In this document: piece after piece, positions 3,570-52,094 of the stretch | How the letters are laid out: every line of letters starts with the position of its first letter | Numbering within the stretch: position 1 is the stretch's first letter | DNA from: Candidatus Saccharimonadales bacterium | GTDB taxonomy: Bacteria; Patescibacteriota; Saccharimonadia; Saccharimonadales; DATKHC01 | Assembly (NCBI GenBank): GCA_035510465.1 | Contig: DATKHC010000010.1 | Coordinates: 22,036-86,035, forward strand | DNA: 64,000 nucleotides | Reading direction: 5' to 3' | Made by a program: the position numbers and the translations under genes | Notes under the pieces: generated by a model | The model's input: the letters and a program-made list of their open reading frames with translations, nothing else | Databases searched by the model: none | What the model was told of the DNA's origin: nothing

Positions 3570-3836
3570 CTATCCAGAATGCAGCCTGAGCCAGGTTGAA
3601 ATATCACTGACACCTAACTTATCAACTGCTATCTTTACTGCGAAGTCTTCAATTTCACCATTATTGGCTTTCATTTTGTAGCCATTCCTCTTTAGAAACA
3701 TCGCTAACGTAGTTATACCTGTCCTCTTATTCCCATCATGAAAAGGGTGGTCAGAAATTAAGTTTCGGGATTTGGGATAGTTTTTATGCAGGTTTGCATG
3801 TAGTCCACTTAAGCTTACGACGAGCTGAGCTTGCAA
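3570..3836 (-). pseudogene. Doc/Fic-family toxin fragment (N-terminally truncated, no phd partner)
   Basis: HPFHDGNKRTG matches the Fic/Doc motif HxFx(D/N)GNKR. The ORF has no ATG; the annotated M is TTG, and an in-frame TAG lies 12 codons upstream. Only about 30 aa precede the motif, versus about 65 in P1 Doc. It is wedged between the LCP stop and the uvrD start. Confidence 0.5.
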
Positions 3837-8272: not shown

Positions 8273-8449
8273 TTTTTTGTTTTTACTACTTATTTAATTG
8301 TACTCCTATTGTAAAGGCTTGTGCTTAATTGGGTCAGAAAGTTTCTTAAGGTTCGAGCACGCTCGTTACTAGATCGCACAGGTTTATTAATCTATCCTTA
8401 GGGTACTAATAGGGGCAAATTATGCTAGCTCATGATGGCGATGTGACGA

Positions 8450-8806
8450 TTATAGGATATCGTCTAGTTTACTAAGTAGTTCGTGCTGCTCCGGGTATTT
8501 TGCAGAATGCTTTTTACTGATTGCTTTGTGGTTAGCAAGAGTAGAGTGTTTGTGGCAGGTTTTATAAGGAGTGCCATCTACTTTAATACGACCTATCCTC
8601 CAGCAATTAACGCATTTATGGTGCTTATATACGGCAATAATTGAACCCAGTATTGCAAATTCGGCTAAATCACTACCAAATCCAGACCAAAAGTTGTACC
8701 ACATGCTTCCCGTAGGAGGTATGTGAGTACCAGTTACGTTTAATAACCAGTGCCAAATATCCATGGGTTCATCTCCTTTTTTGAAGTAATAAACTAATGA
8801 TACCAA
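8450..8806 (-). CDS. Hypothetical small protein with hydrophobic N-part and C-terminal Cys/His cluster
   Basis: Contains YKHHKCVNCWRIGRIKVDGTPYKTCHKH, zinc-ribbon-like. The true start may be the internal Met (MDIWHW). Confidence 0.4.
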   Translation of the reverse strand: MVSLVYYFKKGDEPMDIWHWLLNVTGTHIPPTGSMWYNFWSGFGSDLAEFAILGSIIAVYKHHKCVNCWRIGRIKVDGTPYKTCHKHSTLANHKAISKKHSAKYPEQHELLSKLDDIL

Positions 8807-9306
8807 ATGCCGTTAACTGGCTGGGGGTCGTCTCCAGACCGATTTCAGAACTTTTTAGCACCTAAATTTGTAAATATCAATAACCCCTTTCAACGTATGA
8901 CTATGAGTAGATATTTAGAGTGTCTGATAGCGCAAAAGAACTTCCGATTGATATGAGAGAAAGAATAGACGTAGAGGCCGTAGAGACAGAATGGCGTAAG
9001 GTTATTGAAAGTGGAGTACTAATTCACCACGTGAAGATGGTTATACGCCAAGGCCTAGCCTCATAGAACAAATTGATATTACTCTTCGAAGATCTGGTTG
9101 GCTTAAGGGGAAAGCCACTAAGTTTTGCACTCGGTCAACTTACTATCAATGTATTTATATTAACCATTAATTACTGAAATGGTTTTAATTAATTTTCACT
9201 TCAATCCGTAAGCATAATAACTTTCTTATATAATATACTTGCTTAAAACACATATATAGTGTACTCTATTTATCATTAAATAAATTAATTTTTTGGAGAA
9301 GTCTAG

Positions 9307-11460: not shown

Positions 11461-13211
11461 GATCACTTAAAAATAGAATAGCTTACGTTGTCGTGGGTTT
11501 AGTTTATGCCAGTGTATTATTTTTTATTCCAGTACCGAGCGCTAAAGCTGACTCATCCAGTAATATAGTTGCCAATGGCAACCTTGAACAGAGTAGCGGA
11601 TCACCAGCAGAGCCAGTTGACTGGTCGCCTGAAAGTTGGGGAGTAAACAGCAGCACATTTAATTATTTAACTACCGGATACAATAGCTCTAACTCCGTAC
11701 AAACAATAGTTTCAGGGTATTCTAGCGGCGATGCGAAGTGGATATTTAACCCTGTAAGTATAACCGGAGGGAATAGTCACCAATATACAGACTGGTATGA
11801 GTCAAGTGCTGTAACTAATATTTGGGCAGAGTACACATTAAATGATGGTACAACTCAGTATGTTTGGTTAGGAGCTGATCAGGCTGCTTCAAGCTGGACA
11901 GAAACATCCGAAACATTTACTGCACCCTCCAATGCAGTAAGTGTTAGCGTCCTTCATGTTATAAATGCTAATGGGCAGCTTACACTAGATGATGTTTATT
12001 TATCAGTTCCTTGTACACCTACTTACGTTAATGGATTAGCTAATGGCAGTTTTGATCAAACTTGCCCTAATAGCCCCAATGTACCGTCCGGGTGGTTTAC
12101 ACAAACCTACGGTCCGGACCCTGCAGACTATGGCTACAGCACTACTGATTACAATGGCTCACCAGCAGTTACAATTACTAATAGTTCAGCCAATGACGAA
12201 GCCGGCTGGACGACTAATATACTTTCTCCGCTAAGTAATCAACGCTACCAATTGAGTTTCTGGCAAGAAGGGACTACCTATGTCTACGCATATGTTAATG
12301 AAACTCTAACGAATGGTTCTACGCAATCTGTATCGTTAATGTCGGCACCTTCTACCGCAGGTATATTTGGTACGAATCCTCCTACTTGGTCACAGTATAC
12401 AGATGCATTCGTAACACCTACCAATCTCCAGTCGATGCAGATAGTCATTGCTACAAGTGGAGAAGGAACCTTAGCATTAGCTAACGTAACTTTAAACCTT
12501 TTGACTAACCAAAACCCAACAATATTTAATAGCGGTATGGTTAGCGTAACACTCGATGACAATTTTGTTGATCAATATACAAACGGAGTTAAAACATTAA
12601 ATGAGGATGGATTAAAGGGAACATTTTACGTAGTCGGTGGAACAATAGGTACTAAAGGTTATATGACCCGATCTCAGCTAATCCAAACTGCCAACGATGG
12701 AAACGAAATAGCATCACATCAATATCATTTATCTGATGAGGTAGAGTTAAGCACTTCAACTTTGGTTAGTGAAATAACAGGCAATATTGCCTATCTGCAA
12801 CAAATGTTGGGTTCACAATATCCAATCACAGATTTTGCTAGTCCATACGGCTCGTACACATCCTCTGACACTGATACAGTTATGCAATATGAGCAATCCG
12901 ACCGAACAACAGATGGAGAAATGAACACGAAAGCTAATCTTGACCTTAGCCAAATACATGCTCGTTTGGTATTGCCTACCACCACGCCAGCTGAAGTTGA
13001 ATCGTGGATAGCTCAAGCTCAGACGGAGCATGACTGGTTAGTACTGGTCTATCACGGCATTACTAGATCCCCACTTAACTCCGAGGAAGCTCAATATGCT
13101 ACTAAGCCAGGAAATTTTATAAAAGAAATGTCTTACTTGGAAGCTAGCGGTATTACCGTCGACCCAGTTAATCAAGCACTCACTTCGCTTGAAGCTCAAA
13201 TTAATCAATAA
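11457..13211 (+). CDS. Secreted polysaccharide deacetylase (CE4/NodB domain) with two N-terminal CBM4/9-like modules
   Basis: Signal peptide present. Two roughly 150 aa W/Y-rich repeats each begin NGNLEQ / NGSFDQ. The C-terminal CE4 motifs are VTLDDNF (TFDD-type) and SHQYH (HxxH). PgaB/IcaB-like. Confidence 0.75.
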   Translation: MRSLKNRIAYVVVGLVYASVLFFIPVPSAKADSSSNIVANGNLEQSSGSPAEPVDWSPESWGVNSSTFNYLTTGYNSSNSVQTIVSGYSSGDAKWIFNPVSITGGNSHQYTDWYESSAVTNIWAEYTLNDGTTQYVWLGADQAASSWTETSETFTAPSNAVSVSVLHVINANGQLTLDDVYLSVPCTPTYVNGLANGSFDQTCPNSPNVPSGWFTQTYGPDPADYGYSTTDYNGSPAVTITNSSANDEAGWTTNILSPLSNQRYQLSFWQEGTTYVYAYVNETLTNGSTQSVSLMSAPSTAGIFGTNPPTWSQYTDAFVTPTNLQSMQIVIATSGEGTLALANVTLNLLTNQNPTIFNSGMVSVTLDDNFVDQYTNGVKTLNEDGLKGTFYVVGGTIGTKGYMTRSQLIQTANDGNEIASHQYHLSDEVELSTSTLVSEITGNIAYLQQMLGSQYPITDFASPYGSYTSSDTDTVMQYEQSDRTTDGEMNTKANLDLSQIHARLVLPTTTPAEVESWIAQAQTEHDWLVLVYHGITRSPLNSEEAQYATKPGNFIKEMSYLEASGITVDPVNQALTSLEAQINQ

Positions 13212-13333
13212 TAATCATCGCTGTGTCACTTTGAAAATGTAGTGATATTATCTGTCGTTTTGAGTTTGAGGGATTTTGTAATATCATGCGGTTTCTAATT
13301 TATACGTAATCTTGATTCGGATAAAATGCGAAA

Positions 13334-13366
13334 CCGCTTATAGGAATCGAGTCGGAATTCCGTACC
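13334..13366 (-). repeat. Dispersed intergenic repeat, copy A (diverged; CGGAATTCCG palindrome)
   Basis: CCGCTTATAGGAATCGAGTCGGAATTCCGTACC. Reverse orientation of consensus GGTACGGAAYTCAACCTCGATTCCCAGCCAWAAGCGG. Confidence 0.5.
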
Positions 13367-13372
13367 ACTTAA

Positions 13373-13777
13373 TTGACAGTAGAACACATATGTTATAATC
13401 AATACATGAGTGATGTTTTTGAGATACAGACACCAGCAGAACCTGATGTAAGGTTTTATGAAGCTTTCAAAGCTATTGGGAGTGAACATGGCTACCAAGT
13501 AGAATGTGTAGGAGACACAATAGACGGGCAAACTATTTACCACGCCTTGATAATGACCCGTACTGAATACGACACTCTACTTGCTGAAGTCAACGAAAAA
13601 GAGCGAAGAGATTTTGAAAGTATCACTTTAATGCCAGGTGAAAGACGGGAGCCCTTCAGGCCTCACGAAGTTCTTCCATGGGAATTCTTTATTGAGCAAG
13701 AGGGTCTAGTTAGCGGATATCCAACCCGGAAGTCTGCATTACTTGCCTCACTGAAAAAAGTATTTTATCCGAATTAA
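13373..13777 (+). CDS. Hypothetical protein (possible start at internal MSDVFE)
   Basis: 134 aa ORF bracketed by repeat copies A and B. No recognisable motif. Confidence 0.45.
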   Translation: MTVEHICYNQYMSDVFEIQTPAEPDVRFYEAFKAIGSEHGYQVECVGDTIDGQTIYHALIMTRTEYDTLLAEVNEKERRDFESITLMPGERREPFRPHEVLPWEFFIEQEGLVSGYPTRKSALLASLKKVFYPN

Positions 13778-13784
13778 CGCCAAG

Positions 13785-13820
13785 CCGCTTATGGCTGGGG
13801 ATCGAGGTTCAACTCCGTAC
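13785..13820 (-). repeat. Dispersed intergenic repeat, copy B
   Basis: CCGCTTATGGCTGGGGATCGAGGTTCAACTCCGTAC, between convergent gene ends. Confidence 0.6.
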
Positions 13821-13821
13821 T

Positions 13822-14277
13822 CTATGACTGTGAATTACCAACCACAATCATTGCACAAGCGAATGCTTTTTCGTCTCGAGTTCTAACGAAAAGAGTATTC
13901 TGTGCTCTTTCTACGGGATTGTTAACTAGGTCATAGAACCCAACTCCACTAGGATTATCCTTGCCGTATCTCGTAAGCCAATCTGTCTCGTACTCATCGC
14001 CCAAAGCTTCCTCGAATTCAGATACGGCTTCATGAGGATGTTGGCCGGTATCGGGCATCATTAATAGAACGTGGCTTTCGTCTTCAATTGGCACCAAGGC
14101 TAATATTCCTTTAAGTGCTCTTGCAGAGGAATTGCCCTGGTAATCGACGATTCTAGCCCCCTCAGGAATGCTATAACTAGGGTCAACAATCGCTATGTGA
14201 TCGCCGTGCCCTGTTTCTTCTAGAGCTTTGAGCAGGACGCCGTTTATTCCTCTATCAATTCCTTTAAGTGGTGGCAT
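13822..14277 (-). CDS. RbsD/FucU-family sugar mutarotase-like protein
   Basis: 151 aa. The N-terminus GINGVLLKALEETGHGDHIAIVDPSYSIP resembles the RbsD/FucU GH(G/T)D core. Confidence 0.5.
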   Translation of the reverse strand: MPPLKGIDRGINGVLLKALEETGHGDHIAIVDPSYSIPEGARIVDYQGNSSARALKGILALVPIEDESHVLLMMPDTGQHPHEAVSEFEEALGDEYETDWLTRYGKDNPSGVGFYDLVNNPVERAQNTLFVRTRDEKAFACAMIVVGNSQS

Positions 14278-14364
14278 AATTTCTCCTTCTTAAGATATAT
14301 TTAAGACCTAACAGATAGGAATTGCAAGCTTGAGCAGTAAGTAGATTTACCAATAGATAAAGAT

Positions 14365-14399
14365 GCTTATGGCTGGGATTTGAGGTTGAATTCTGTACC
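14365..14399 (-). repeat. Dispersed intergenic repeat, copy C
   Basis: GCTTATGGCTGGGATTTGAGGTTGAATTCTGTACC. Confidence 0.6.
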
Positions 14400-14417
14400 A
14401 TTTAATCAAGAGCTTTC

Positions 14418-15344
14418 TTAAATCAAAGAACCATATATAACTATATTGTTGCTATAGTGGTGGGTTTGTTCACTAAATACCCCACCACAAGTAATCAATC
14501 TAAGACCAGCGTAGTCAACGTTCCCATATACAAGTTGGGTTGGGAAACTATTTTGCGGATACTCTCTAAGAGCATCGACTTTAAACCTGGCAGTAGTCCC
14601 ATCAGCCCTAACTACATCAATTTCATCGCCTGGCTGAAGCAACCTTAAGTCCCAAAAGACACCAATACCACCTACGTGATCTACGTGACCAACTATAACT
14701 GAAGCCCCAATTGAACCTGGAGTTGGTGAACCTGTGTACCAGCCGGTGGTTGTATAGTCACTTGGCGGAGTTAAACTCCCGTCTGGTTGCAGACCATCGG
14801 GAAATACCGAAGCGTCAACTTCAATGCTCGGAATTTGAATTTCGACTGGCGTAGAACTAGGCATCGAAAGGGGTACAGCCGGTGTAACAATAGTACTAGA
14901 TTTTATAGCACCGGTGTCTGCCGTATTAATATTTATTCGGGCTACACCATAAACACTAGGTCCAAAAACAAACATCCCCGCAACTCCGGCCATGATAATA
15001 ATTAGACTGGCTGGATTTATTTGAGAGAAGTATTTCGAATTATTAACAGATTGCTGAATTATATTGAGTCGTGATCTGCGCTTTATGCCAGAGAAAGAGA
15101 TTTCCCTAAACGGCATGAAGTACAGAGGCAAGACTATCTGAGCCAGCAGTTTCGAACGATTGTTAGGTTTAGTTCGGAAACGTCTAACCGAGACAGAAAA
15201 ACGAATCTTGGAAAACCGTACTTGCCAACGACGAGCTCGAGTGTGATCTTTCCTAGCTGAACTCCTATTAAAATAGGAAATTGACCGCTTGGCGAGCACC
15301 TTTGCTTTATCAGCGAGGGGCTTTTTGATGCCTAACACGGTCAA
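14418..15344 (-). CDS. Class F (actinobacterial-type) sortase with long basic cytoplasmic N-extension
   Basis: IQIPSIEVDASVFPDG...GWYTGSPTPGSIGASVIVGHVDH...LLQPGDEIDV...FPTQLVYGNVDYAGLRLITCGG. About 130 basic residues precede the TM. Confidence 0.7.
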   Translation of the reverse strand: MTVLGIKKPLADKAKVLAKRSISYFNRSSARKDHTRARRWQVRFSKIRFSVSVRRFRTKPNNRSKLLAQIVLPLYFMPFREISFSGIKRRSRLNIIQQSVNNSKYFSQINPASLIIIMAGVAGMFVFGPSVYGVARININTADTGAIKSSTIVTPAVPLSMPSSTPVEIQIPSIEVDASVFPDGLQPDGSLTPPSDYTTTGWYTGSPTPGSIGASVIVGHVDHVGGIGVFWDLRLLQPGDEIDVVRADGTTARFKVDALREYPQNSFPTQLVYGNVDYAGLRLITCGGVFSEQTHHYSNNIVIYGSLI

Positions 15345-15376
15345 TCTCCTTATCTAAATCTATACGAAAACCAGGG

Positions 15377-15970
15377 TTACTGGTTTTTACTCAGGCGTCG
15401 TACGCCCAAGAAAGCTATAGCAGCAGAACCGACTAGTCCGAGAGCTGCAGCAACGTCTAGAGTTTTTACACCACCGAAACCAGCGTTAACTGGACCGACA
15501 GGCGCAGCAACGGGTGCTGGGGCCGGGGCTTGGGCTGTAGCAGCTACAGGTGGAGTAGGTGTTGGGGTTGTTGTTACAGGAGGAATAACGACTGGCTGAG
15601 CACATGCTGTGGCCAGAGTTACGGTAGCAGTACGGCTACGCATTGTACTATCGCTAGGGAAGTTACCCTCAAGCATTAATGTGTCGCTACCTGCTTTTGT
15701 GCCATCAGCAACCTGAGTAAAATCCTCAGTGCTTTTTGCAGCTACAGTTGTTCCGACAGGAACAACAGCAGTGTCACTTGAACCTGTGATTGTTAGTGCT
15801 TCATTTTCGACAGAGTTATCTACAACCCATGTAATTTTAAAAGAACCATCAGTTTGACACTGTCCGGTTCCTGTTAATCCGTAAGTCCAGGCAAGAGCTG
15901 AACCACTCATAAATGCTACTGTTGCTAGGGTTGTTATTCCGCTCGCAGCTGTTAATAAAACTCGTTTCAT
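15377..15970 (-). CDS. Secreted Pro/Thr/Ala-rich surface protein with C-terminal hydrophobic anchor and RR tail (candidate sortase substrate, no canonical LPXTG)
   Basis: Signal peptide MKRVLLTAASGITTLATVAFMSGSALA. PTPTPP/APAPAP linker. C-terminus VNAGFGGVKTLDVAAALGLVGSAAIAFLGVRRLSKNQ. Lies immediately upstream of the class F sortase on the same strand. Confidence 0.6.
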   Translation of the reverse strand: MKRVLLTAASGITTLATVAFMSGSALAWTYGLTGTGQCQTDGSFKITWVVDNSVENEALTITGSSDTAVVPVGTTVAAKSTEDFTQVADGTKAGSDTLMLEGNFPSDSTMRSRTATVTLATACAQPVVIPPVTTTPTPTPPVAATAQAPAPAPVAAPVGPVNAGFGGVKTLDVAAALGLVGSAAIAFLGVRRLSKNQ

Positions 15971-16499: not shown

Positions 16500-16531
16500 G
16501 CTTTTATAAGCTTATAGATCAACGTTTACTA

Positions 16532-17208
16532 ACCTAGGGCTGATTGTAATTTAGCTAGGTTTACTACGATAAAAGAATGGTCTTTCTGTGATAGCAAGCC
16601 TTCTTTGAAAAGAAGCTCAATCGCCCTGCTGGCGGTCTCTCGGTTCATGCTAATAGAATCAGCGATATCCTGATGGGTGATTAGGAACGTCAATGAATAC
16701 TCCTGCCCCTAGGTGTTTGCCAAACCTTTTAGCCAGGTATATTATTTCTGCAATAATTCTTTCTCTGGCTCTGGCTGATCTAAACTCTAAGGTTTGGATC
16801 CTCTGTGTATACAGAGCAATGATGTTTACGGTCTGATTTAACACTTCCTGAGCCAACCATTGATTATTCCCCGTGTCTTCGCGCAACCTATCTTTGGATG
16901 CTTTTATAACGGTAACTTGACATTGCTTGGTAAGACAAGCCTGTTATATTTGTCCCGTCTAGCGCCCAAGGAAGCGGAATAAACTCGCCTGCTTGATGGA
17001 TTAGCAAAAGGTTCCCATTTCCGTTTCGTGATACAGAATACGCTTTAACAAAACCAAGCTTTATAAGATAAACTCCATCAGGCTCTTCAAGGCCATTAAT
17101 AATAGTCTCTTCTTTAGAGAACTCCATAATTAAACCATCATTGAAATGAGATATTATGCTTTTATCTTTGGTCTCCGAAGCTAGTGCAGCCCGTAAACTA
17201 GTATCCAT
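16532..17208 (-). pseudogene. Crp/Fnr-family regulator pseudogene (two frameshifts)
   Basis: Three consecutive minus-strand segments in three different frames. The cNMP-binding domain is 17208..16888. The middle segment, 16886..16659, reads RSARARERIIAEIIYLAKRFGK. The HTH, about 16680..16532, reads ITHQDIADSISMNRETASRAIELLFKEGLL. The intact paralog at 36936..37586 aligns with them collinearly. Confidence 0.7.
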
Positions 17209-17371: not shown

Positions 17372-17605
17372 ATGAAAGGTAAAAGAATGCCCAACTTAAT
17401 TAGTGCATCGAACAACAAACAGCAAAAACACCCAAAAGTAAGCTCAAATCAGTATTTATATGACGTCAGTGATCCAGAGGATATTAGCTCAGATCTTTCC
17501 GAAACATTTAAGGCTCAACTTGAAGAACGTGCCGATAGGTACTACATGACTATGAGACGACAATTCAGGCGGGAAGCTCAGAAACTCAGGAGAGACTACT
17601 CCTGA
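17372..17605 (+). CDS. Hypothetical small basic protein
   Basis: 77 aa. A terminator hairpin lies directly downstream. Confidence 0.35.
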   Translation: MKGKRMPNLISASNNKQQKHPKVSSNQYLYDVSDPEDISSDLSETFKAQLEERADRYYMTMRRQFRREAQKLRRDYS

Positions 17606-31134: not shown

Positions 31135-32370
31135 ATGAGCAAGCGAGCACCAGCAAAGAAGCATAAAAAAAAGAAGTATCCAGCTTTATTGGTGGCCGTC
31201 TTAATAATCCTGGTGATCGCAGGCCCAATTTTCTTCTTGTTCGTTCGTTTCAGCTCAATAGGTCAGATCCACCCCAGCATCTCAGGGCCAAATCAAATAT
31301 CTACGGGCAGTTTAAATATAAGCTGGCCTGCATCAACAGAGGACGCCATAGGCGTTAGTGGGTATGGTCTGCTTAGCGAAAGCTCCAACCAGGCCGCCTC
31401 CCCAACAGCAAGTATCGCCAAAATTTTAACCGCACTATCTGTATTAAGGGTAAAACCATTGGTTCTTGGGGAGCAGGGACCAGTCATTACTATCTCTTCT
31501 GCCGACGTTAATTCATACTTAACTTACCAGGCTGAAGGCGGTTCAGTTGTTAAGGTTTCTCAGGGTGAACAAATTACGGAGTATCAAGCACTTGAAGCTA
31601 TGCTGCTTCCTTCGGCTAATAACATGGCAGACACTCTCGTCAATTGGGCTTTTGGATCTATGGATAACTACACTAGCTATGCAAACAATTACGCCAAGTT
31701 AATAGGAATGAGCTCAACACATATAGCGGATGCCAGCGGATTCTCACCTCAAACCGTCAGTAGTCCGACAGATCTTATAGTGCTCGGACAGACTGCTCTA
31801 AACAATCAGACAATTGCTCAAATTATTGCCCAAAAATCTGCCGTTATTCCAGTTGCTGGTACGGTTTCAAACGTGAATTGGTTACTTGGACAGAACGGAG
31901 TAATCGGGATAAAGACTGGTAACACAGACCAGGCTGGTGGATGTTATTTATTCGCGGCCAATTACGACGAAGGTAAGCAGGTTATCACAATCATCGGCGA
32001 TGTGAGCAAGGCAAGCACACTACAGAATGCCATAGACGACGGGGCAAATCTAATAGACCAAGTAAGGCCACAGATCCAAACGATTAACTTAAGTGCGACC
32101 AGTCTTGAGAACGTAGAATACAAATCTACCTGGGGCCAGAACAGTTCCGCAACTGCCACAGACCAGGAGACTCTATCTTATATCCCAGGAATGATTTTAA
32201 AAGAGCAGGTTAGCACTAAATCCATCAGGGTCCCTTCCATGCAAGGTAAGATTGTCGGACAAATAACCATATCTTCTGGCGCAGACTCCATATCATCAGC
32301 CTTAGCGCTAAAAAACAGCATAAACAAACCTGGCTGGCTATGGGTCCTGGAACACCCAAGTAAAATTTAA
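31135..32370 (+). CDS. D-alanyl-D-alanine carboxypeptidase (peptidase S11, PBP5/6-like)
   Basis: SxxK (ASIAKI), SxN (PSANN) and KTG (IKTGNT) motifs. N-terminal TM/signal. Confidence 0.8.
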   Translation: MSKRAPAKKHKKKKYPALLVAVLIILVIAGPIFFLFVRFSSIGQIHPSISGPNQISTGSLNISWPASTEDAIGVSGYGLLSESSNQAASPTASIAKILTALSVLRVKPLVLGEQGPVITISSADVNSYLTYQAEGGSVVKVSQGEQITEYQALEAMLLPSANNMADTLVNWAFGSMDNYTSYANNYAKLIGMSSTHIADASGFSPQTVSSPTDLIVLGQTALNNQTIAQIIAQKSAVIPVAGTVSNVNWLLGQNGVIGIKTGNTDQAGGCYLFAANYDEGKQVITIIGDVSKASTLQNAIDDGANLIDQVRPQIQTINLSATSLENVEYKSTWGQNSSATATDQETLSYIPGMILKEQVSTKSIRVPSMQGKIVGQITISSGADSISSALALKNSINKPGWLWVLEHPSKI

Positions 32371-32939
32371 GTAATCAACTCTGTGACCGCTGATGGTTCC
32401 ATGTCTGGATAGTCAGTGTACCTTGTGAACTTTTGGTGTTTTTTCCATAAGCCTTCGAGTTCGCCTTTTGAGACAGCTTTTTTAGATAAATACCACGCTA
32501 GCTTAGCTGTGCCTTTTTTATTATCCTTAAGCTCAAGTTCAAAAAGTTTTGTGACTTTTATTGGCTTTCTGTACGAAACCCGATAAAGCACTAAGTTGTT
32601 GGAGTTAGTAATCACAACCCAATTTAGGCCTAGACCAAGAGCGTAAGCAAGTGCCTGCGAAAGGTGTTGAGGTGACAACTTAGTATTAAGCGGTTTAACC
32701 TCGATCACAAATATCTGCTTACCCATTATTTCGACTAGATAGTCGGCAAAACCTCCGCCAATATGTGGTTCAATTTTTATATCTACAAGCTCTTTGTAGC
32801 CTAGCACATCTGTTAATAGATGGTTTACAAGTATCCTGGTCGATGATTCAGATAGATTATCTAGCTGTTTGTTTAAATAAAAACGTCGGTAGCGATTTAG
32901 TTTTCCTGTTATACCCGCATCTGTGGGTGATAGGATCAT
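32367..32939 (-). CDS. Stand-alone PD-(D/E)xK nuclease-fold protein (HsdR N-terminal domain-like)
   Basis: GGGFADYLVE...IFVIEVKP (D...ExK). 190 aa. Directly abuts the IS30 element. Confidence 0.5.
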   Translation of the reverse strand: MILSPTDAGITGKLNRYRRFYLNKQLDNLSESSTRILVNHLLTDVLGYKELVDIKIEPHIGGGFADYLVEIMGKQIFVIEVKPLNTKLSPQHLSQALAYALGLGLNWVVITNSNNLVLYRVSYRKPIKVTKLFELELKDNKKGTAKLAWYLSKKAVSKGELEGLWKKHQKFTRYTDYPDMEPSAVTELIT

Positions 32940-33079: not shown

Positions 33080-34145
33080 ATCTTGTAGACTAGTGGTTGT
33101 AACACAACTAAATACAAGGAGAACAGAGATGCACTTTCATCTTACACAACAACAACGTATAGAGCTAAGCCTTTTGCTTAAGCTCGGTCACACGCAACAT
33201 AATATTGCACTGGTACTAGGAGTTAACCCAAGTACCATAAGCCGGGAGCTAGGTCGGAATCGTAGAGCTAGCGGCATATACCATCCGGCTTCGGCTAGAT
33301 TGAGAGCTGGCACACGACGAGCAAATGCCAATGCTCTACGTACTAAGCTACTGGCAAATATACAGCTAGCAGAAGCTGTAGAGCGTAAACTCATTCGTAA
33401 TGATTCACCAGACCAAATAGCTGGTTGGATGCGCGACACCAAACGGAGAGTCAGGGTTTGTGCTCAAACTATCTATGACTGGGTATACTTGCATGCTCGG
33501 CATTTACTGAAACACCTTCATTGCCGTAAAGGTAAGTACCGTCTAACTAGAGAAACTGCTCTTAAGAAAGCTTTTAGGGATAAGCTGAAAGAAGCTAGGC
33601 GTATTAGCGCTAGACCAGCCCATATCCAACGACGAAGTCGGTATGGCCATTGGGAAGGAGATACGGTTGTTGGCAAAGGCCATAGTGGCTGTATTGCTAC
33701 ATTCGTGGAACGCAAGAGTGGTTATCTAATGGCGGTTAAGTTGGCTCGAGGGACAGCCAAGAATTTTGAGGTAGCTGCAGAGCGTAGTTTTGCTGTCATT
33801 ACCAAAAGCTACCGCAAAACCCTAACCCTAGACAATGGCGCTGAGATGAGCAACTACGAGGAAATTGAACTAAGTACTGGTTTACGGATTTACTTTGCTC
33901 AACCCTATCATTCGTGGGAGAGAGGTACTAACGAGAATACCAATGGATTACTTAGGTTCTACTTCCCAAAGCAAATGAGGCTTGAAAGTATTACTCAAGA
34001 AATGCTTGACGTAGCCGTCAAGCAGCTAAATACTAGACCAAGGAAACGACTAGGCTACAAGACACCAGAGCAAGTCTTTAAGTTAAAAAGGTAATGTTAC
34101 GATTCGGGTTGGAATCTAAGGTTTAGTCGGAACCTAGTAACTCAG
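33080..34145 (+). mobile_element. IS30-family insertion sequence (boundaries approximate)
   Basis: Single DDE transposase ORF. The left end TGTAGACTAGTGGTTGTAACACAAC (33084-) resembles IS30 IRL TGTAGATTCAATTGG... The right end, around GGAATCTAAGG...AACCTAGTAA, is only loosely inverted-repeat-like. I could not delimit a target-site duplication. Confidence 0.55.
33130..34094 (+). CDS. IS30-family DDE transposase
   Basis: N-terminal HTH IALVLGVNPSTISRELGRN. HWEGDTVVGKGHSGCIATFVERKSGY, the IS30 catalytic region. An alternative upstream start at 33093 is possible. Confidence 0.85.
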
Positions 34146-48436: not shown

Positions 48437-48575
48437 GGTGCCCTTATGTTTTTTAGTAATCTTAGCCCTACTTAATTATCAATATAGACTAAGCACAATC
48501 ATTATACAACAAATAACAGATAGCCAATTAACTATTCACTCAATGCCTAGCATCAGAGTAAGGATTTTTGCATCT

Positions 48576-48610
48576 GGTTCGAATCTCCAAACCCCAGCCA
48601 ACCATAAGCA
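48576..48610 (+). repeat. Dispersed intergenic repeat, degenerate copy H
   Basis: GGTTCGAATCTCCAAACCCCAGCCAACCATAAGCA. The 3' half matches the consensus CCCAGCCAAGCGTAAGC at 15 of 19 positions. Confidence 0.35.
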
Positions 48611-48631
48611 ATTTAACTTATTAGTAGATAT

Positions 48632-48934
48632 TTATGCCGAAACAAAGAACTTCAGGCCCCTTGACCTATCGTCATCGTAAAAATCAAGGACGTTTTCATA
48701 AGAGTCTATTCCCATAAATCCATCCGTAGTTAAGACCTCGATACATTCCGGCCTATCTTCTCCTAACCCAACTACACTATGAACTGCAGCACCTAGTCTT
48801 GTGCTTTCGTCTCTTCCACCTAAAACAGCGTGGCGCCCCAGGGCAATTGGGGGATTAATAGGATATCCTTCTTCAACAACGTGGTCGGGTGCGGGTGGAC
48901 AATCGAACTCCCTAGCTACTATTGTGCCGTTCAT
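48632..48934 (-). CDS. Hypothetical protein; in frame with the upstream ORF across a single TAA
   Basis: 100 aa ORF with no recognisable motif. Confidence 0.35.
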   Translation of the reverse strand: MNGTIVAREFDCPPAPDHVVEEGYPINPPIALGRHAVLGGRDESTRLGAAVHSVVGLGEDRPECIEVLTTDGFMGIDSYENVLDFYDDDRSRGLKFFVSA

Positions 48935-48964
48935 CCAATACCCAAAACGGTGGCAGTTTGTTAC

Positions 48965-49297
48965 TTATCTTCGTCCAGGTACCATAAGACCCGTATATTC
49001 ACTTCTGACTTGGTTAAATCGGGGTTTATCTACAAAAAATCGAGTATAAAACTCACCTAGTTTACGGGCTACATCTTCAGGCATTTCTATGACTTCAAGC
49101 TCGGCATCCTTTGGATTGTACCCTGATTCAGGAACGGTATAGTCAACTCTTGTCCAACGGGTTGGTGACATATCTTGGACAATTTCCATACCTACAACAC
49201 GCCTATATGGTTGTTTGGTTGTCCTACCGTTTAGGTGAACATAAGTCGACGGAACAGTGTATAGTTGAACTCGCTCAATACCTGTCATAATAAACAT
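48965..49297 (-). CDS. Hypothetical protein
   Basis: 110 aa. The stop TAA at 48965-48967 is followed 10 codons later, in the same frame, by the next ORF. Confidence 0.35.
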   Translation of the reverse strand: MFIMTGIERVQLYTVPSTYVHLNGRTTKQPYRRVVGMEIVQDMSPTRWTRVDYTVPESGYNPKDAELEVIEMPEDVARKLGEFYTRFFVDKPRFNQVRSEYTGLMVPGRR

Positions 49298-49357
49298 ATT
49301 ATAGCATAACTGTTATAGATTATCAACTATAACTAGTGTAGTTAGGTCGTTTTATGG

Positions 49358-49388
49358 GGTACGGAACTCAACCTCGATTCCCAGCCAA
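49358..49388 (+). repeat. Dispersed intergenic repeat, copy D
   Basis: GGTACGGAACTCAACCTCGATTCCCAGCCAA. Confidence 0.6.
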
Positions 49389-49472
49389 TATTTCACCTAT
49401 GTCAACATTTGTGCCACCTCGGTTTGAATCCTTGTTGAATATTTGCGTCTGCGCATATAAGATTATATAATA

Positions 49473-49922
49473 TTGGTCATGGCAACCCAACTCGAATTTC
49501 AAGACCCACAGGTGCAGAGTGCGCTTGAAAATTTTAGTGAGTACGTCCTGACTAGTAACTTCAGAACCAGGATAGTACATCAAATTACACGGGTTATTGA
49601 TTTAGCTGAGTACTGCGAACATCCAAAACAAAAAATAGCGAACCTAAAAGAAGCTCTTGGGGCAGAAGCTTTATTTGCAGTTTGGAGACAACCTCTCAGT
49701 AACACCGAGGGCAACTTAAACCTCATCGTGAAAGTTGACGGAGACGGACGTATTATTGATGGATCTCCAGTACACGTTGGGATTTTAGTTGATGACCATC
49801 CACAAATGACCTGTTTTGGTTTCACTCCTGATGAACTAAGGGTTGTTGAGTATTTTGCGCTTGCTCAAGATCAACTACCCTGGCAACCCAACACTAGTGG
49901 ATTAATCTATCATTCTCGTTAA
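49473..49922 (+). CDS. Hypothetical protein
   Basis: 149 aa ORF bracketed by repeat copies D and E. Confidence 0.45.
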   Translation: MVMATQLEFQDPQVQSALENFSEYVLTSNFRTRIVHQITRVIDLAEYCEHPKQKIANLKEALGAEALFAVWRQPLSNTEGNLNLIVKVDGDGRIIDGSPVHVGILVDDHPQMTCFGFTPDELRVVEYFALAQDQLPWQPNTSGLIYHSR

Positions 49923-49949
49923 AGAGCCGGATTAATTACTTATCAAACC

Positions 49950-49989
49950 GTACGGAACTCAACCTCGATTCCCAGCCAAGCGTAAGCGG
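49950..49989 (+). repeat. Dispersed intergenic repeat, copy E (longest)
   Basis: GTACGGAACTCAACCTCGATTCCCAGCCAAGCGTAAGCGG. Confidence 0.65.
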
Positions 49990-49995
49990 TTTGAC

Positions 49996-50412
49996 CTAAG
50001 TCAGTTTTAGAAACTCAGCCGGAGTTAGTATTTGAATATTCTCGTATTTCTTTATGACCGTTAAGTCTTTATCGCCGCTAATAATATAGCTGCATTTGCC
50101 AATAACCGCTGTCTCTATAATTTTATTGTCGTCTATATCTCTAGAGACATTAATTACACGACTTCCAAGAGGTACCCATATTGCATATTTTCTAAGCAAC
50201 TTCTCGTATCTTCCTATGCCAGGTATGTGTTCCGGGAACCTAGAGGTTATGATGCGCCTGAGCTCAGACATGATCTCTTCTGACATCACAGGTCTTATTA
50301 CCTTATCGGGGATTAAATTTGTAACTTTTCGAGGAGTTCCTCCGAATACCAGAGCAGAGACAAGAACATTAGTATCAACTACAGCTCTAACTGGCTTTTG
50401 ATTGCTTTTCAC
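49996..50412 (-). CDS. PIN-domain toxin (VapC-like)
   Basis: VRAVVDTNVLVSAL (first acidic Asp) and IISGDKDL, typical PIN signatures. 138 aa. Confidence 0.8.
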   Translation of the reverse strand: MKSNQKPVRAVVDTNVLVSALVFGGTPRKVTNLIPDKVIRPVMSEEIMSELRRIITSRFPEHIPGIGRYEKLLRKYAIWVPLGSRVINVSRDIDDNKIIETAVIGKCSYIISGDKDLTVIKKYENIQILTPAEFLKLT

Positions 50413-50644
50413 TCTTGTACTCTGTAATCTTGTCGTAAACTTGCTGCTCGCTAGTTATTCCTGTCTGTTGGCCCAATTTATTTCCCCAATTGAATAGGTC
50501 TTCCCATTCTTTTCGGCGATCTAGGTCATCTAATGCCAAGCGACGGAAATACTCACTTCGGCTGCCCATATCTTTTTTAACAGCTTCGTCTATTTCTTTT
50601 AAAAGTTTTTCGTCTAACGCGATATTTAGCGTCTTAGTTGCCAT
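50387..50644 (-). CDS. Ribbon-helix-helix (CopG/VapB-like) antitoxin
   Basis: MATKTLNIALDEKLLKEIDEAVKKDMGSRSEYFRRLAL. The likely start is the MATKT Met at 50644. Overlaps the PIN gene by 26 nt. Confidence 0.7.
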   Translation of the reverse strand: MATKTLNIALDEKLLKEIDEAVKKDMGSRSEYFRRLALDDLDRRKEWEDLFNWGNKLGQQTGITSEQQVYDKITEYKSEKQSKAS

Positions 50645-50703
50645 ATTATATTCTCCTTCTACACATATTGTATAGATATTGTATAGGCATGTCAACTTAA
50701 CGT

Positions 50704-50741
50704 GGTACGGAACTCAACCTCAATTCCCAACCAAGCGTAAG
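50704..50741 (+). repeat. Dispersed intergenic repeat, copy F
   Basis: GGTACGGAACTCAACCTCAATTCCCAACCAAGCGTAAG. Confidence 0.65.
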
Positions 50742-50766
50742 AATTTTAATTTGATATTATTAAATT

Positions 50767-50949
50767 ATGCCATCTCCTCGTGTAATTCACGAATTTGAAG
50801 TCGGAGTACCTCCAATAGGACACGATGACGAAAGAATATTGTCTCCAACTGAGACTAGAATACTGAAAAAGTTAATATTGGGCGGAGACGTTGATCAAGC
50901 CACTAACGACTCACTATTAAGTAAGTTTGCCGGATTTATGACAGTTTGA
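50767..50949 (+). CDS. Hypothetical small protein
   Basis: 60 aa ORF immediately after repeat copy F. Confidence 0.3.
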   Translation: MPSPRVIHEFEVGVPPIGHDDERILSPTETRILKKLILGGDVDQATNDSLLSKFAGFMTV

Positions 50950-50972
50950 ACTCTAGCAATAAATAGGATTAG

Positions 50973-51574
50973 CTATCCAGTTTTTTCAGCTAATAACGCC
51001 ATGTGACCCATGCCTGCACACAAACTAGCCCGCTGCCAACTATAATCAGCGTTATGGAAACCGTACTCTGCAAATCCATGTTCAAATTGATCGTTTATGA
51101 ATACTCCCTCAACTTCTGGGCCCATACACGCACAATTACCCATAACCTGTACTCCAATTCCACCAAGTTCTCTTCTGCCTGCTGAAAAACCCATGTGAGT
51201 TCGAGTTGATCTTTGCGGTGTCTCTTCCGGTAATTCATGCAGAGACCTATATGCATCTTGCATAACTCGCCAAGTATCGCTTAATAGCCCTGGGTTGCTA
51301 TCCACCCATTCTTGTAGCTTGGGGCTGGCTATTAGACGACCAGGATAGTCTGGTATGTAGAGGGGGTGTTTCCCGACTTCTGCTACATCTATACCTTCAT
51401 CGCGCTCAGTCCTAAATCTGAGTGACTATAATCATGGGGATCAAAAGAGTCTAAAGGGAGAGATTTATCGGCTATTAAGAAGACTTTGTCCTTGCTGTCA
51501 TAGCTAAATGGATAAAGAGTTGCTCCTGAGCCCTCTCTTGCAAGGTATTCAAAAAACTCGGGTACTTCAGCCAT
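50973..51574 (-). pseudogene. Frameshifted gene (two overlapping reading frames of one probable roughly 230 aa protein), unknown family
   Basis: ORF 51574..51389 ends in ...SAMKV. A second frame is open from 51425 to 50973 with a GTG 'start' at 51305. The two overlap over 51389..51425, so one indel would join them. Confidence 0.45.
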
Positions 51575-51627
51575 AGGTCTAATATATATTAAAATTTTAT
51601 TGAAAGCTAGTAACTTTTGTGATCTAA

Positions 51628-51656
51628 GTTACGGAATTCAACCTAGATTTCCAGCC
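51628..51656 (+). repeat. Dispersed intergenic repeat, copy G (diverged)
   Basis: GTTACGGAATTCAACCTAGATTTCCAGCC. Confidence 0.5.
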
Positions 51657-51665
51657 TTCATAAAC

Positions 51666-52094
51666 CTAATAAGGTGTGTCCTGCCAACTGCTTACCGACA
51701 CCTGAGGTGAGGTGGCATTTACGGTTATAGTAATTTGGTGATAGTAGCTGGTGTAGCCGTTAACTACGCTGCCAAGTGAGCTAATTGAATAGTTCGGGTT
51801 TGTGCCGGATATAGTGTAGTTGCAAGTCTCATTAATACTTGAGTTAAGTGTTTGGGAGCCACTGAGCGGGCTAGGGGAGCCTGGGCTCTGTTGGATAGCT
51901 AGTAGGGCAAGCTGCGCGCAACCGCCTGAAGCAGCTTTCGCCTGAACATTGCCATCTACAGCCCCGGATGAAATACTTGAATTCTGACCGCTCAGAAGCA
52001 GAAAGGCTGCAGTGGTTACCGCAATTACACCTAGCACTAAAACTGTTATCAGGACTATGTAGCCTTTTTCTTGGCTGTTATTTATTCTACTCAT
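51666..52094 (-). CDS. Minor pilin/pseudopilin-like protein (PilX/GspK-like, lacks Glu5)
   Basis: N-terminal KGYIVLITVLVLGVIAVTTAAFLL hydrophobic helix. 142 aa. Last gene of the pilus operon. Confidence 0.5.
   Translation of the reverse strand: MSRINNSQEKGYIVLITVLVLGVIAVTTAAFLLLSGQNSSISSGAVDGNVQAKAASGGCAQLALLAIQQSPGSPSPLSGSQTLNSSINETCNYTISGTNPNYSISSLGSVVNGYTSYYHQITITVNATSPQVSVSSWQDTPY

Follow-up and report, generated by a model that had tools for sequence, protein, structure and literature searches.

In Dehalococcoides, tandem genomic islands specific for ssrA have been described, some of which lack integration genes and were interpreted as cis-mobilizable elements (PMC3146451). Both the integrase-less cis-mobilizable element (CIME) and the process of accretion have been defined in PMC5704250. 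We analyzed a family of short dispersed repeats that delimits small accessory-gene modules in a 64-kb stretch of DNA from Candidatus Saccharimonadales bacterium (contig DATKHC010000010.1, positions 22,036 to 86,035), referred to as the window. The family falls in the known class of tRNA-derived attachment (att) repeats, and the tandem ssrA islands of Dehalococcoides appear to be the closest described parallel among those we found. In a literature search of incomplete coverage, we came across no earlier account of arrays of this kind in Saccharibacteria or Patescibacteria.

As in the ssrA islands and CIMEs, the repeats are direct repeats of the 3' end of a stable-RNA gene, and in L017, a locus of the genome OY969420.1, they form a co-oriented chain downstream of that gene. 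Some modules carry no integration genes, and the region is variable and interrupts synteny. A conserved motif which does not derive from the RNA gene lies just upstream of each repeat, as it does in the ssrA islands. Unlike the ssrA islands, which measure 10-30 kb, the modules here are gene-sized (0.45-3.5 kb). None of the arrays contains an integrase or integration module, so that they fit the integrase-less CIME subclass only. The arrays of the window are remote from any tRNA gene (one occupies a place within a pilus operon), and the repeat unit includes a block of ~20 nt which is not tRNA sequence and is identical across species. We propose that the repeats are att-type recombination sites resulting from the serial integration (accretion) of integrase-less cassettes, that they are active or recently active, and that the recombinase is provided in trans. 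In our judgement this proposal has an even chance of being correct.

With up to three mismatches, a 28-nt core of the repeat, TACGGAAYTCAACCTCGATTCCCAGCCA, matched the + strand of the window at positions 49360, 49951, 50706 and 51630 and its - strand at 13792 and 14370, compared to no match in 100 dinucleotide-preserving shuffles. The family profile additionally recovered a partial copy at 13333-13371 (-) and a degenerate copy at 48573-48615 (+). A further copy at 8806-8857 (-), with a profile E-value of 4e-4, had been missed in the preliminary description of this DNA, which counted at least eight copies. The window total is nine, and every copy is intergenic or touches a stop codon. In agreement with the co-orientation described for each locus, the region at 48.5-51.7 kb has five + copies and the one at 8.8-14.4 kb has four - copies. 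All of them are limited to accessory-gene clusters, and the ~70 other intergenic regions of the window contain none. The absence of core matches in the shuffles and the position of the copies at module boundaries confirm that this is a genuine repeat family delimiting small accessory-gene modules. The 37-nt consensus originally written for it, on the other hand, has no match at up to three mismatches, because a 4-nt indel (AGCG/AGTA) between CCAGCCA and TAAGC separates the copies in the alignments.

To follow the family into other genomes, as had been suggested, a sequence collection was scanned for exact matches, and these only, to a 24-mer of the core. The 24-mer was found in one species-representative genome, the 780-kb metagenome-assembled genome OY969420.1 (locus L001, extended as L017), and in three metagenome contigs (L002, L003 and L004, the last being the same DNA as the window). 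Two more loci, L015 and L016, were reached via the 90% cluster of one cassette protein. The family is thus present also in L002, L003, L015 and L017. A profile search of 96.7 kb at E<=0.01 yielded 30 copies, 11 of them outside the training set of the profile: two in L002 (+), three in L003 (-), six in L015 (+), ten in L017 (-) and, in the window, four (-) followed by five (+). Each contig has one orientation, with a single switch in the window; we calculate that, if orientations were random, such a pattern would arise with a probability of ~3e-7. All copies are located at module boundaries, and the genes flanking them are divided about equally between the two strands. The modules mostly comprise one or two genes. 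The repeat spacing of 450-3500 bp, with genes in the intervals, is incompatible with a CRISPR array, as the preliminary description had stated. Among the products of the module genes across the arrays are GNAT acetyltransferases, aminoglycoside-phosphotransferase (APH)-family, HSDR_N-like and DUF4396 proteins and many proteins without a family. A gene pair in L017 was read as the toxin-antitoxin pair BrnT/BrnA from the translations only and has no Pfam hit.

The repeat is 30-45 bp long. An alignment of all copies revealed two conserved blocks, a left one (GTWCGGAAYTC) and a right one (CCCAGCCA), the latter usually followed by (AGYR)TAAGCRRTTT. The 10-11 nt that separate the two blocks are variable and define subfamilies: the middle of the canonical subfamily is AACCTCGATT, that of subfamily 2 in L017 is GSWCTGGATG, and L003 and L015 have others. 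The repeats of L016 possess a longer, different left part and share only the right module, AGCCAAGCATAAGC..TTT, with the family of the window.

The relationship to a tRNA gene is most apparent in L017. Here, ten copies are chained on one strand between 7.5 and 17.0 kb, and the chain is headed by a tRNA-Gln(CTG) gene, which ARAGORN identified at 17474-17547 (-). All ten copies share the strand of this tRNA and lie within 10 kb of its 3' end. The 17-mer CCCAGCCAAGCATAAGC, composed of the last 8 nt of the tRNA-Gln(CTG) and 9 nt of its trailer, recurs without mismatch 489 bp downstream and with 1-2 mismatches further on (0 occurrences expected by chance). An intermediate form is found in the window, where positions 48576-48615 align with the L017 tRNA-Gln (17459-17498) over 40 nt from the T-loop to the trailer with 87.5% identity (E=1e-6); a 24-nt stretch of this copy is 96% identical to tRNA-Gln. 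The complete fragment (48573-48615) lacks the 5' half of the tRNA, and ARAGORN calls no tRNA there. The L015 array, too, begins with a copy of this 3'-fragment form. In the other copies the left block (GTTCGGAACTC, GTACGGAACTC) is T-loop-like (cf. GGTTCGAATCC) as read from the sequences, and the repeat unit is ~5 nt longer than the tRNA 3' end, so that a T arm cannot form. As judged by these sequence comparisons, the repeat family is related to the 3' end of tRNA-Gln. The preliminary description had named an identity of the copies as tRNA fragments as a finding that would speak against it, and this partly applies: the right module equals the tRNA-Gln(CTG) 3' end plus trailer of L017, and the copy at 48576 is a tRNA-Gln 3' fragment. 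L017 is the one tRNA-Gln locus in the comparison, the contigs of L002, L003, L015 and L016 being too short to show whether their repeats follow a tRNA gene. Relaxed ARAGORN thresholds produced noise only.

A GGAAT/ATTCC stem (GGAAY/RTTCC) proposed earlier for the core does exist in the canonical copy. It is not kept in the other subfamilies, however, and the fold of the canonical copy is no better than that of shuffled sequences (z=+0.5, 141 of 200 shuffles folding at least as well). Single-stranded DNA folds of canonical, subfamily-2 and L016-type copies on both strands likewise gave z-values from -0.4 to +0.9 relative to shuffles, and the other subfamilies have not retained the partial dyad symmetry seen in the canonical copy. 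The family is conserved as sequence rather than as structure, which argues against its interpretation as attC sites, repetitive extragenic palindromic (REP) elements or structured RNA. Searches in Rfam assigned 0 families to the window at the gathering threshold and none over the arrays even at E<=5.

These results bear directly on a function at the RNA level, either as a tRNA-like element for 3' processing or stability or as an unusual terminator of accessory transcripts. The kinship to a tRNA 3' end finishing in CCA would be in line with such a role, as would the frequent position of the repeat 0-50 nt after a stop codon and a terminator-like hairpin with a T-run that can be read after the right module in some cassettes. 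Apart from the missing fold signal on either strand and the missing Rfam match, this explanation is weakened by the absence of a 5' acceptor strand for a tRNA-like helix, by neighboring genes on either strand about equally, and by the promoters of array 1. The best promoter matches in this array (11 of 12 positions each) are TTGACA-17-TACAAT at 50695-50667 (-) and TTGATA-17-TATAAT at 49326-49298 (-). Each is directed away from the copy next to it on the upstream side, 50704 and 49358, respectively. With the leftward promoter on one side and a rightward start codon ~90 nt away on the other, copy 49358 is upstream of both and, if these consensus matches represent the actual promoters, is probably outside both neighboring transcripts. 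Because of the outward promoters, the lack of a fold signal and of an Rfam match, and the neighbors on either strand, a role of the repeats at the DNA level is favored. We consider a signal in RNA most improbable, and the structured RNA raised as an option in the preliminary description unlikely.

Evidence on whether the modules are independent units comes from a cassette with an APH-family gene (PF01636) that occurs in L002, L015 and L016 (frameshifted in L016) with 82-84% nucleotide identity. Its left neighbors are a HAD hydrolase gene in L002, a gene for a 102-aa protein on the opposite strand in L015 and a methyltransferase gene in L016. On its right side it is followed by a GNAT gene in L015 and a gene for an 88-aa protein in L016, and L002 ends at the downstream repeat. 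The homology begins within the upstream repeat, at CCCAGCC|AAGCATAA, and stops 5-13 nt past the stop codon, directly before GTACGG of the next repeat. The breakpoints thus coincide with the repeats, and the right module moves together with the gene that follows it. The block after the APH cassette is the canonical left block in L002 and L015 and an L016-type block in L016. Together with the uniform orientation, the recurrence of this cassette in three arrays and the breakpoints at the repeats favor the suggestion that the repeat is a recombinase site for module shuffling.

Exchange between flanking homologies would also place breakpoints at the repeats. In this case no dedicated recombinase would be involved: DNA that Saccharibacteria take up by type IV pili would be swapped or added by RecA recombination between the 30-45 bp blocks, which would act as portable homology. 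Identical blocks of 30 nt are near the minimal length for RecA. Array 1 is situated within a type IV pilus operon, the organism encodes PilB, PilC and pilins, and no recombinase is found near any array. Homologous exchange, however, replaces DNA and does not build arrays, and RecA acting on direct repeats favors deletion. Neither the tRNA-derived sequence and the chain starting at a tRNA gene nor the identity of the non-tRNA left block across species is explained by this route, which we regard as distinctly unlikely.

The conservation of the left block has to be considered in another respect. L017 belongs to a relative of the window organism. The orthologous Crp regions of the two are 69.8% identical at the DNA level; their canonical 30-mer is identical at 30 of 30 positions. 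The repeats are the sole sequence that L002 and L003 share with the window. In L002, L003 and L015 the genes next to the repeats are unrelated to those of the window, yet the left block shows few or no differences. Leftover att repeats of larger islands or prophages at tRNA-Gln, since decayed and rearranged, could leave a similar picture with nothing moving today. Many copies are indeed degenerate or truncated, no integrase is nearby, the L017 chain begins at the tRNA gene like classical islands do, and decayed tandem islands of such a kind are known from the literature. Neutral scars should diverge, though, and the non-tRNA left block did not do so between genomes ~70% identical in orthologous DNA. 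Modules of only 0.45-0.9 kb with their own promoters, the presence of several independent arrays, some far from any tRNA, and the APH cassette, whose homology breaks off at the sites in three arrays, are also difficult to reconcile with inert remnants. The identity of the left block across species suggests that selection continues or that the spread was recent, and speaks against dead scars. An origin as inert scars is therefore unlikely in our view, though less so than RecA-mediated exchange.

The preliminary description had proposed a search for a co-occurring tyrosine or serine recombinase, and none was found in any locus. The only transposase-like gene of the window encodes an IS30-like DDE transposase (rve + HTH_38; 33093-34094, +). 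It could be cited in favor of a selfish element resembling REPs or miniature inverted-repeat transposable elements (MITEs), copied into intergenic DNA by a transposase encoded elsewhere, with the intervening genes as bystanders. In common with REPs, bacterial interspersed mosaic elements and MITEs the repeat is short, intergenic, multi-copy and lineage-specific, and it is highly conserved across genomes. In contrast to these elements it is not palindromic and forms no significant hairpin, and the alignments revealed neither terminal inverted repeats nor a consistent target-site duplication. Its orientation is uniform within a contig rather than random, and the copies keep to clusters of accessory genes. 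The DNA around the IS30-like gene showed neither terminal inverted repeats of the IS nor any likeness to the repeat family. A MITE-like nature, as considered previously, is thus very unlikely. The IS30-like gene adjoins a gene with an HSDR_N_2 domain (32367-32939, -); a 47%-identical HSDR_N-like gene is a cassette of the L017 array.

Several observations weigh against serial integration at active sites. No tyrosine or serine recombinase (Phage_integrase, Resolvase) was detected in the window, in the 20 kb of L017, in L015 or in L016. ARAGORN finds 0 tRNA genes in the window and the two groups of copies are opposed; the arrays of the window are therefore not simply located downstream of a tRNA. 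A profile built without the tRNA-like copies matches the tRNA 3' end weakly (6.7 bits, E=0.15), so the case for a link to the tRNA is made mainly by the right module and the intermediate forms, together with the place and strand of the tRNA. The degenerate state of many copies is what inactive scars would show. Under a strict model, with every cassette bringing its own site, the L016-type block after the APH cassette is not predicted. Finally, an excision product, an empty site or strain-level polymorphism was not observed; contigs of the same strain in Logan break at the repeats, as expected from the 30-nt identity in combination with k=31. The nearest relatives (64% identity in PilC, 51% in the sortase) are too distant or not syntenic for a comparison of cassettes or empty sites. 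Searches of phage, plasmid and viral-contig sequences gave matches at chance level or none.

Based on the sequence, arrangement and breakpoints of the repeats we propose the following mechanism for accretion. The right module, CCCAGCCA with (AGYR)TAAGCRRTTT, corresponds to the 3' strand of the acceptor stem of tRNA-Gln(CTG), its CCA end and the trailer; the left block GTWCGGAAYTC with the ~10 nt following it is T-loop-like and ~5 nt too long for a working T arm. A recombinase encoded elsewhere would insert small circular modules, each with one or two genes, its own promoter and one site, at the tRNA-Gln 3' end or at any existing copy. Every insertion would add one module and one direct repeat, which would give rise to a co-oriented array. 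Crossover would most likely occur at or just 5' of CCCAGCCA, in which case the right module would move with the gene downstream of it. We infer the action of a recombinase on the repeats, as well as its kind, the crossover position and any present activity.

A more far-reaching version of serial integration would see in these arrays an active, integron-like platform for gene capture in Saccharimonadales, a group of the candidate phyla radiation (CPR). A recombinase acting in trans would insert gene-sized cassettes, each with its own promoter, at sites mimicking tRNA-Gln, where they would be stacked and passed from species to species, and arrays could be seeded away from the tRNA, for example in the type IV pilus operon. 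Such a platform would be convergent with integrons and mechanistically distinct from them. We put this forward tentatively, as possible and somewhat short of an even chance. Integrons and clusters of attC sites lacking integrases (CALINs) are likewise arrays of small, mostly ORFan, toxin-antitoxin, acetyltransferase or resistance-type genes between co-oriented sites. As in CALINs, there is no integrase beside the array, and one cassette recurs in different arrays. The sites differ from those of integrons and CALINs in that they are tRNA-derived and lack the imperfect hairpin of 57-141 nt with R''/R' (RYYYAAC/GTTRRRY) and L''/L' boxes, and unlike integron cassettes those described here have their own promoters and face either way. 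A second comparison is provided by the Xer-dependent pdif modules of Acinetobacter plasmids and by integrative mobile elements exploiting Xer (IMEXs). Here too, sites of ~28-30 bp flank accessory modules including toxin-antitoxin pairs, and we count as a further likeness that the recombinase is host-encoded elsewhere. The repeats have no similarity to the dif consensus (11-bp XerC and XerD arms with a 6-bp spacer), however, and are direct and not alternating.

Further candidates for the identity of the repeat were considered and discarded. For integron attC sites, which the preliminary description had rightly set aside, a flanking inverted repeat occurs only in copy 49949 (CAAACCG...CGGTTTG) and, as a long one, in the L001 copy 7246, with no fold signal, and the GTCAA box that resembles R'' of attC is the -35 element of cassette promoters. 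The 11-7-11 dyad of a tyrosine-recombinase site was rejected, as neither subfamily 2 nor the L003 copy 855 shows the partial symmetry that the canonical copy has. For a dif-like site, the single overlap with the core ATAA-N6-TTATG, at 14357, is due to chance and not general. The opposed blocks of the window might indicate a replication terminator (Ter) or a replichore-polar site; there is no switch in GC skew, and the cassette boundaries would be unexplained. The 38-bp inverted repeat of the Tn3 family (GGGG...TAAG) does not fit, since GGGG is present in one copy only. For a coding remnant, nothing consistent was seen in the reading frames.

The positions of repeats and modules in the window are listed in Table 1. 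Within the type IV pilus operon, array 1 (48.5-51.7 kb) has the minor-pilin genes on one side and the major pilin gene on the other. Since the same pilus operon in the nearest relatives (64% PilC identity) contains neither the array nor the repeats, array 1 is probably a lineage-specific insertion. Array 2 (13.3-14.4 kb) is flanked by the genes of a polysaccharide deacetylase and a class F sortase.

Table 1. Repeat copies and gene modules of the window. Strands of repeats refer to the repeat orientation, strands of modules to their genes.
Feature	Position	Strand	Description
Array 1, first site	48573..48615	+	tRNA-Gln 3' fragment: T-loop-like GGTTCGAATC ... CCCCAGCCA plus trailer ACCATAAGCAATTT; profile match
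Array 1, module 1	48616..49352	-	Two small genes (48632-48934, 48965-49297), no Pfam hit; own promoter
Array 1, canonical copy	49353..49399	+	GGTACGGAACTCAACCTCGATTCCCAGCCA with alternative right flank ATATTTCACCT...; between divergent genes
Array 1, module 2	49400..49944	+	Single 147-aa ORFan gene (49479-49922)
Array 1, canonical copy	49945..49992	+	Full right module AGCGTAAGCGGTTT; between convergent gene ends
Array 1, module 3	49993..50700	-	Toxin-antitoxin pair: PIN_3 toxin (49996-50412), RHH antitoxin (50387-50695); own strong promoter
Array 1, near-canonical copy	50701..50748	+	2 mismatches; next to the RHH-PIN promoter, directly upstream of its -35 box
Array 1, module 4	50749..51624		60-aa open reading frame on the + strand (50767-50949); open reading frames on the - strand (50973-51305, 51389-51574)
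Array 1, last site	51625..51666	+	Left block near-canonical, right part degenerate; abuts the stop codon of a minor-pilin gene (51666-52094)
Array 2, first site (in repeat orientation)	14358..14404	-	19 nt past the sortase stop codon
Array 2, module	13826..14357	-	RbsD/FucU-family gene (13822-14277)
Array 2, middle site	13788..13825	-	Touches the stop codon of the RbsD/FucU-family gene
Array 2, module	13372..13787	+	Single ~123-aa gene, no Pfam hit; open reading frame 13373-13777, likely start ATG at 13407
Array 2, last site	13333..13371	-	Variant without CAGCCA: GGTACGGAATTCCGACTCGATTCC-TA-TAAGCGGTTT
Solo degenerate copy	8806..8857	-	Subfamily-2 type (AGTTCTGAAATCGGTCTGGAGACGACCCCCAGCCA)

The form with the CAGCCA deletion at the end of array 2 was also observed in L017 at 8361-8406. 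The alternative right flank of the copy at 49353-49399 is common to the L003 copy 855: a stretch of ~50 nt, ATATTTCACCTMTGWCAACAT...GTTYGAATCC, replaces the usual TAAGCGGTTT module at 49388-49437 of the window and at 854-805 (-) of L003. It precedes unrelated genes and holds another T-loop-like GTTYGAATCC. This flank may be a shared promoter or leader, or a further tRNA-derived piece. L016 contains a second, longer repeat family, CAATCCTCCACATCTCCACCAGCTCA..TTAA..GGTTCCATTTCGTCAAAGGCAYGGGAGCCAAGCATAAGC, at 140-215, 1113-1192, 2040-2115 and 2428-2510. A TAA is found at the identical position of every copy, and the 5' part of the first copy is the in-frame C-terminus of the upstream open reading frame.

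Among 5.8 billion proteins, the sole homologue of the 147-aa ORFan of module 2 is the protein itself. The two - strand open reading frames of module 4 (110 aa and 61 aa; 50973-51574) are arranged head to tail with a short gap and may be one disrupted gene; the calls on a Logan contig are 96 and 61 aa. Next to array 2, two Logan contigs from different runs (L013 and L014) both end at position 14312 of the window, 58 nt beyond copy 14370 and still in promoter DNA of the RbsD/FucU cassette. Assemblies contain no record of the RbsD-like protein. The contig ends could reflect polymorphism at this cassette or simply low coverage. In L017, a module of 3.5 kb (12431-15967) bounded by the repeat copies 12391 and 15973 contains genes for a heliorhodopsin, an NmrA-like protein, a short-chain dehydrogenase and a bPH_3/PNPOx protein. 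A light-sensing gene may therefore have been acquired there as a repeat-bounded module.

Elsewhere in the window, the gene of a Crp/Fnr-family regulator (16529-17208, -) is split into three open reading frames (54, 75 and 106 aa), in contrast to an intact gene of 228 aa in L001/L017, and may be a frameshifted pseudogene or the result of an assembly error. An 88-aa open reading frame at 3570-3836 (-) covers the C-terminal part only of a Fic/DOC domain and is possibly a truncated toxin gene. The 1.4 kb further to the left of the window contained nothing new.

Saccharibacteria and other members of the CPR have tiny genomes and depend on hosts, and the routes by which they gain and shuffle accessory genes are poorly known. 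Short-read assemblies of such genomes break exactly at the cassettes owing to the repeats. If the sites are active, the motif GTWCGGAAYTC...CCCAGCCAAGCRTAAGC would provide a sequence tag for mining accessory genes and for tracing the recombinase, and the arrays would represent a route of cassette exchange in this phylum. Should the integron-like reading be true, it would add a gene-capture system to a phylum whose routes of gene acquisition are poorly known.

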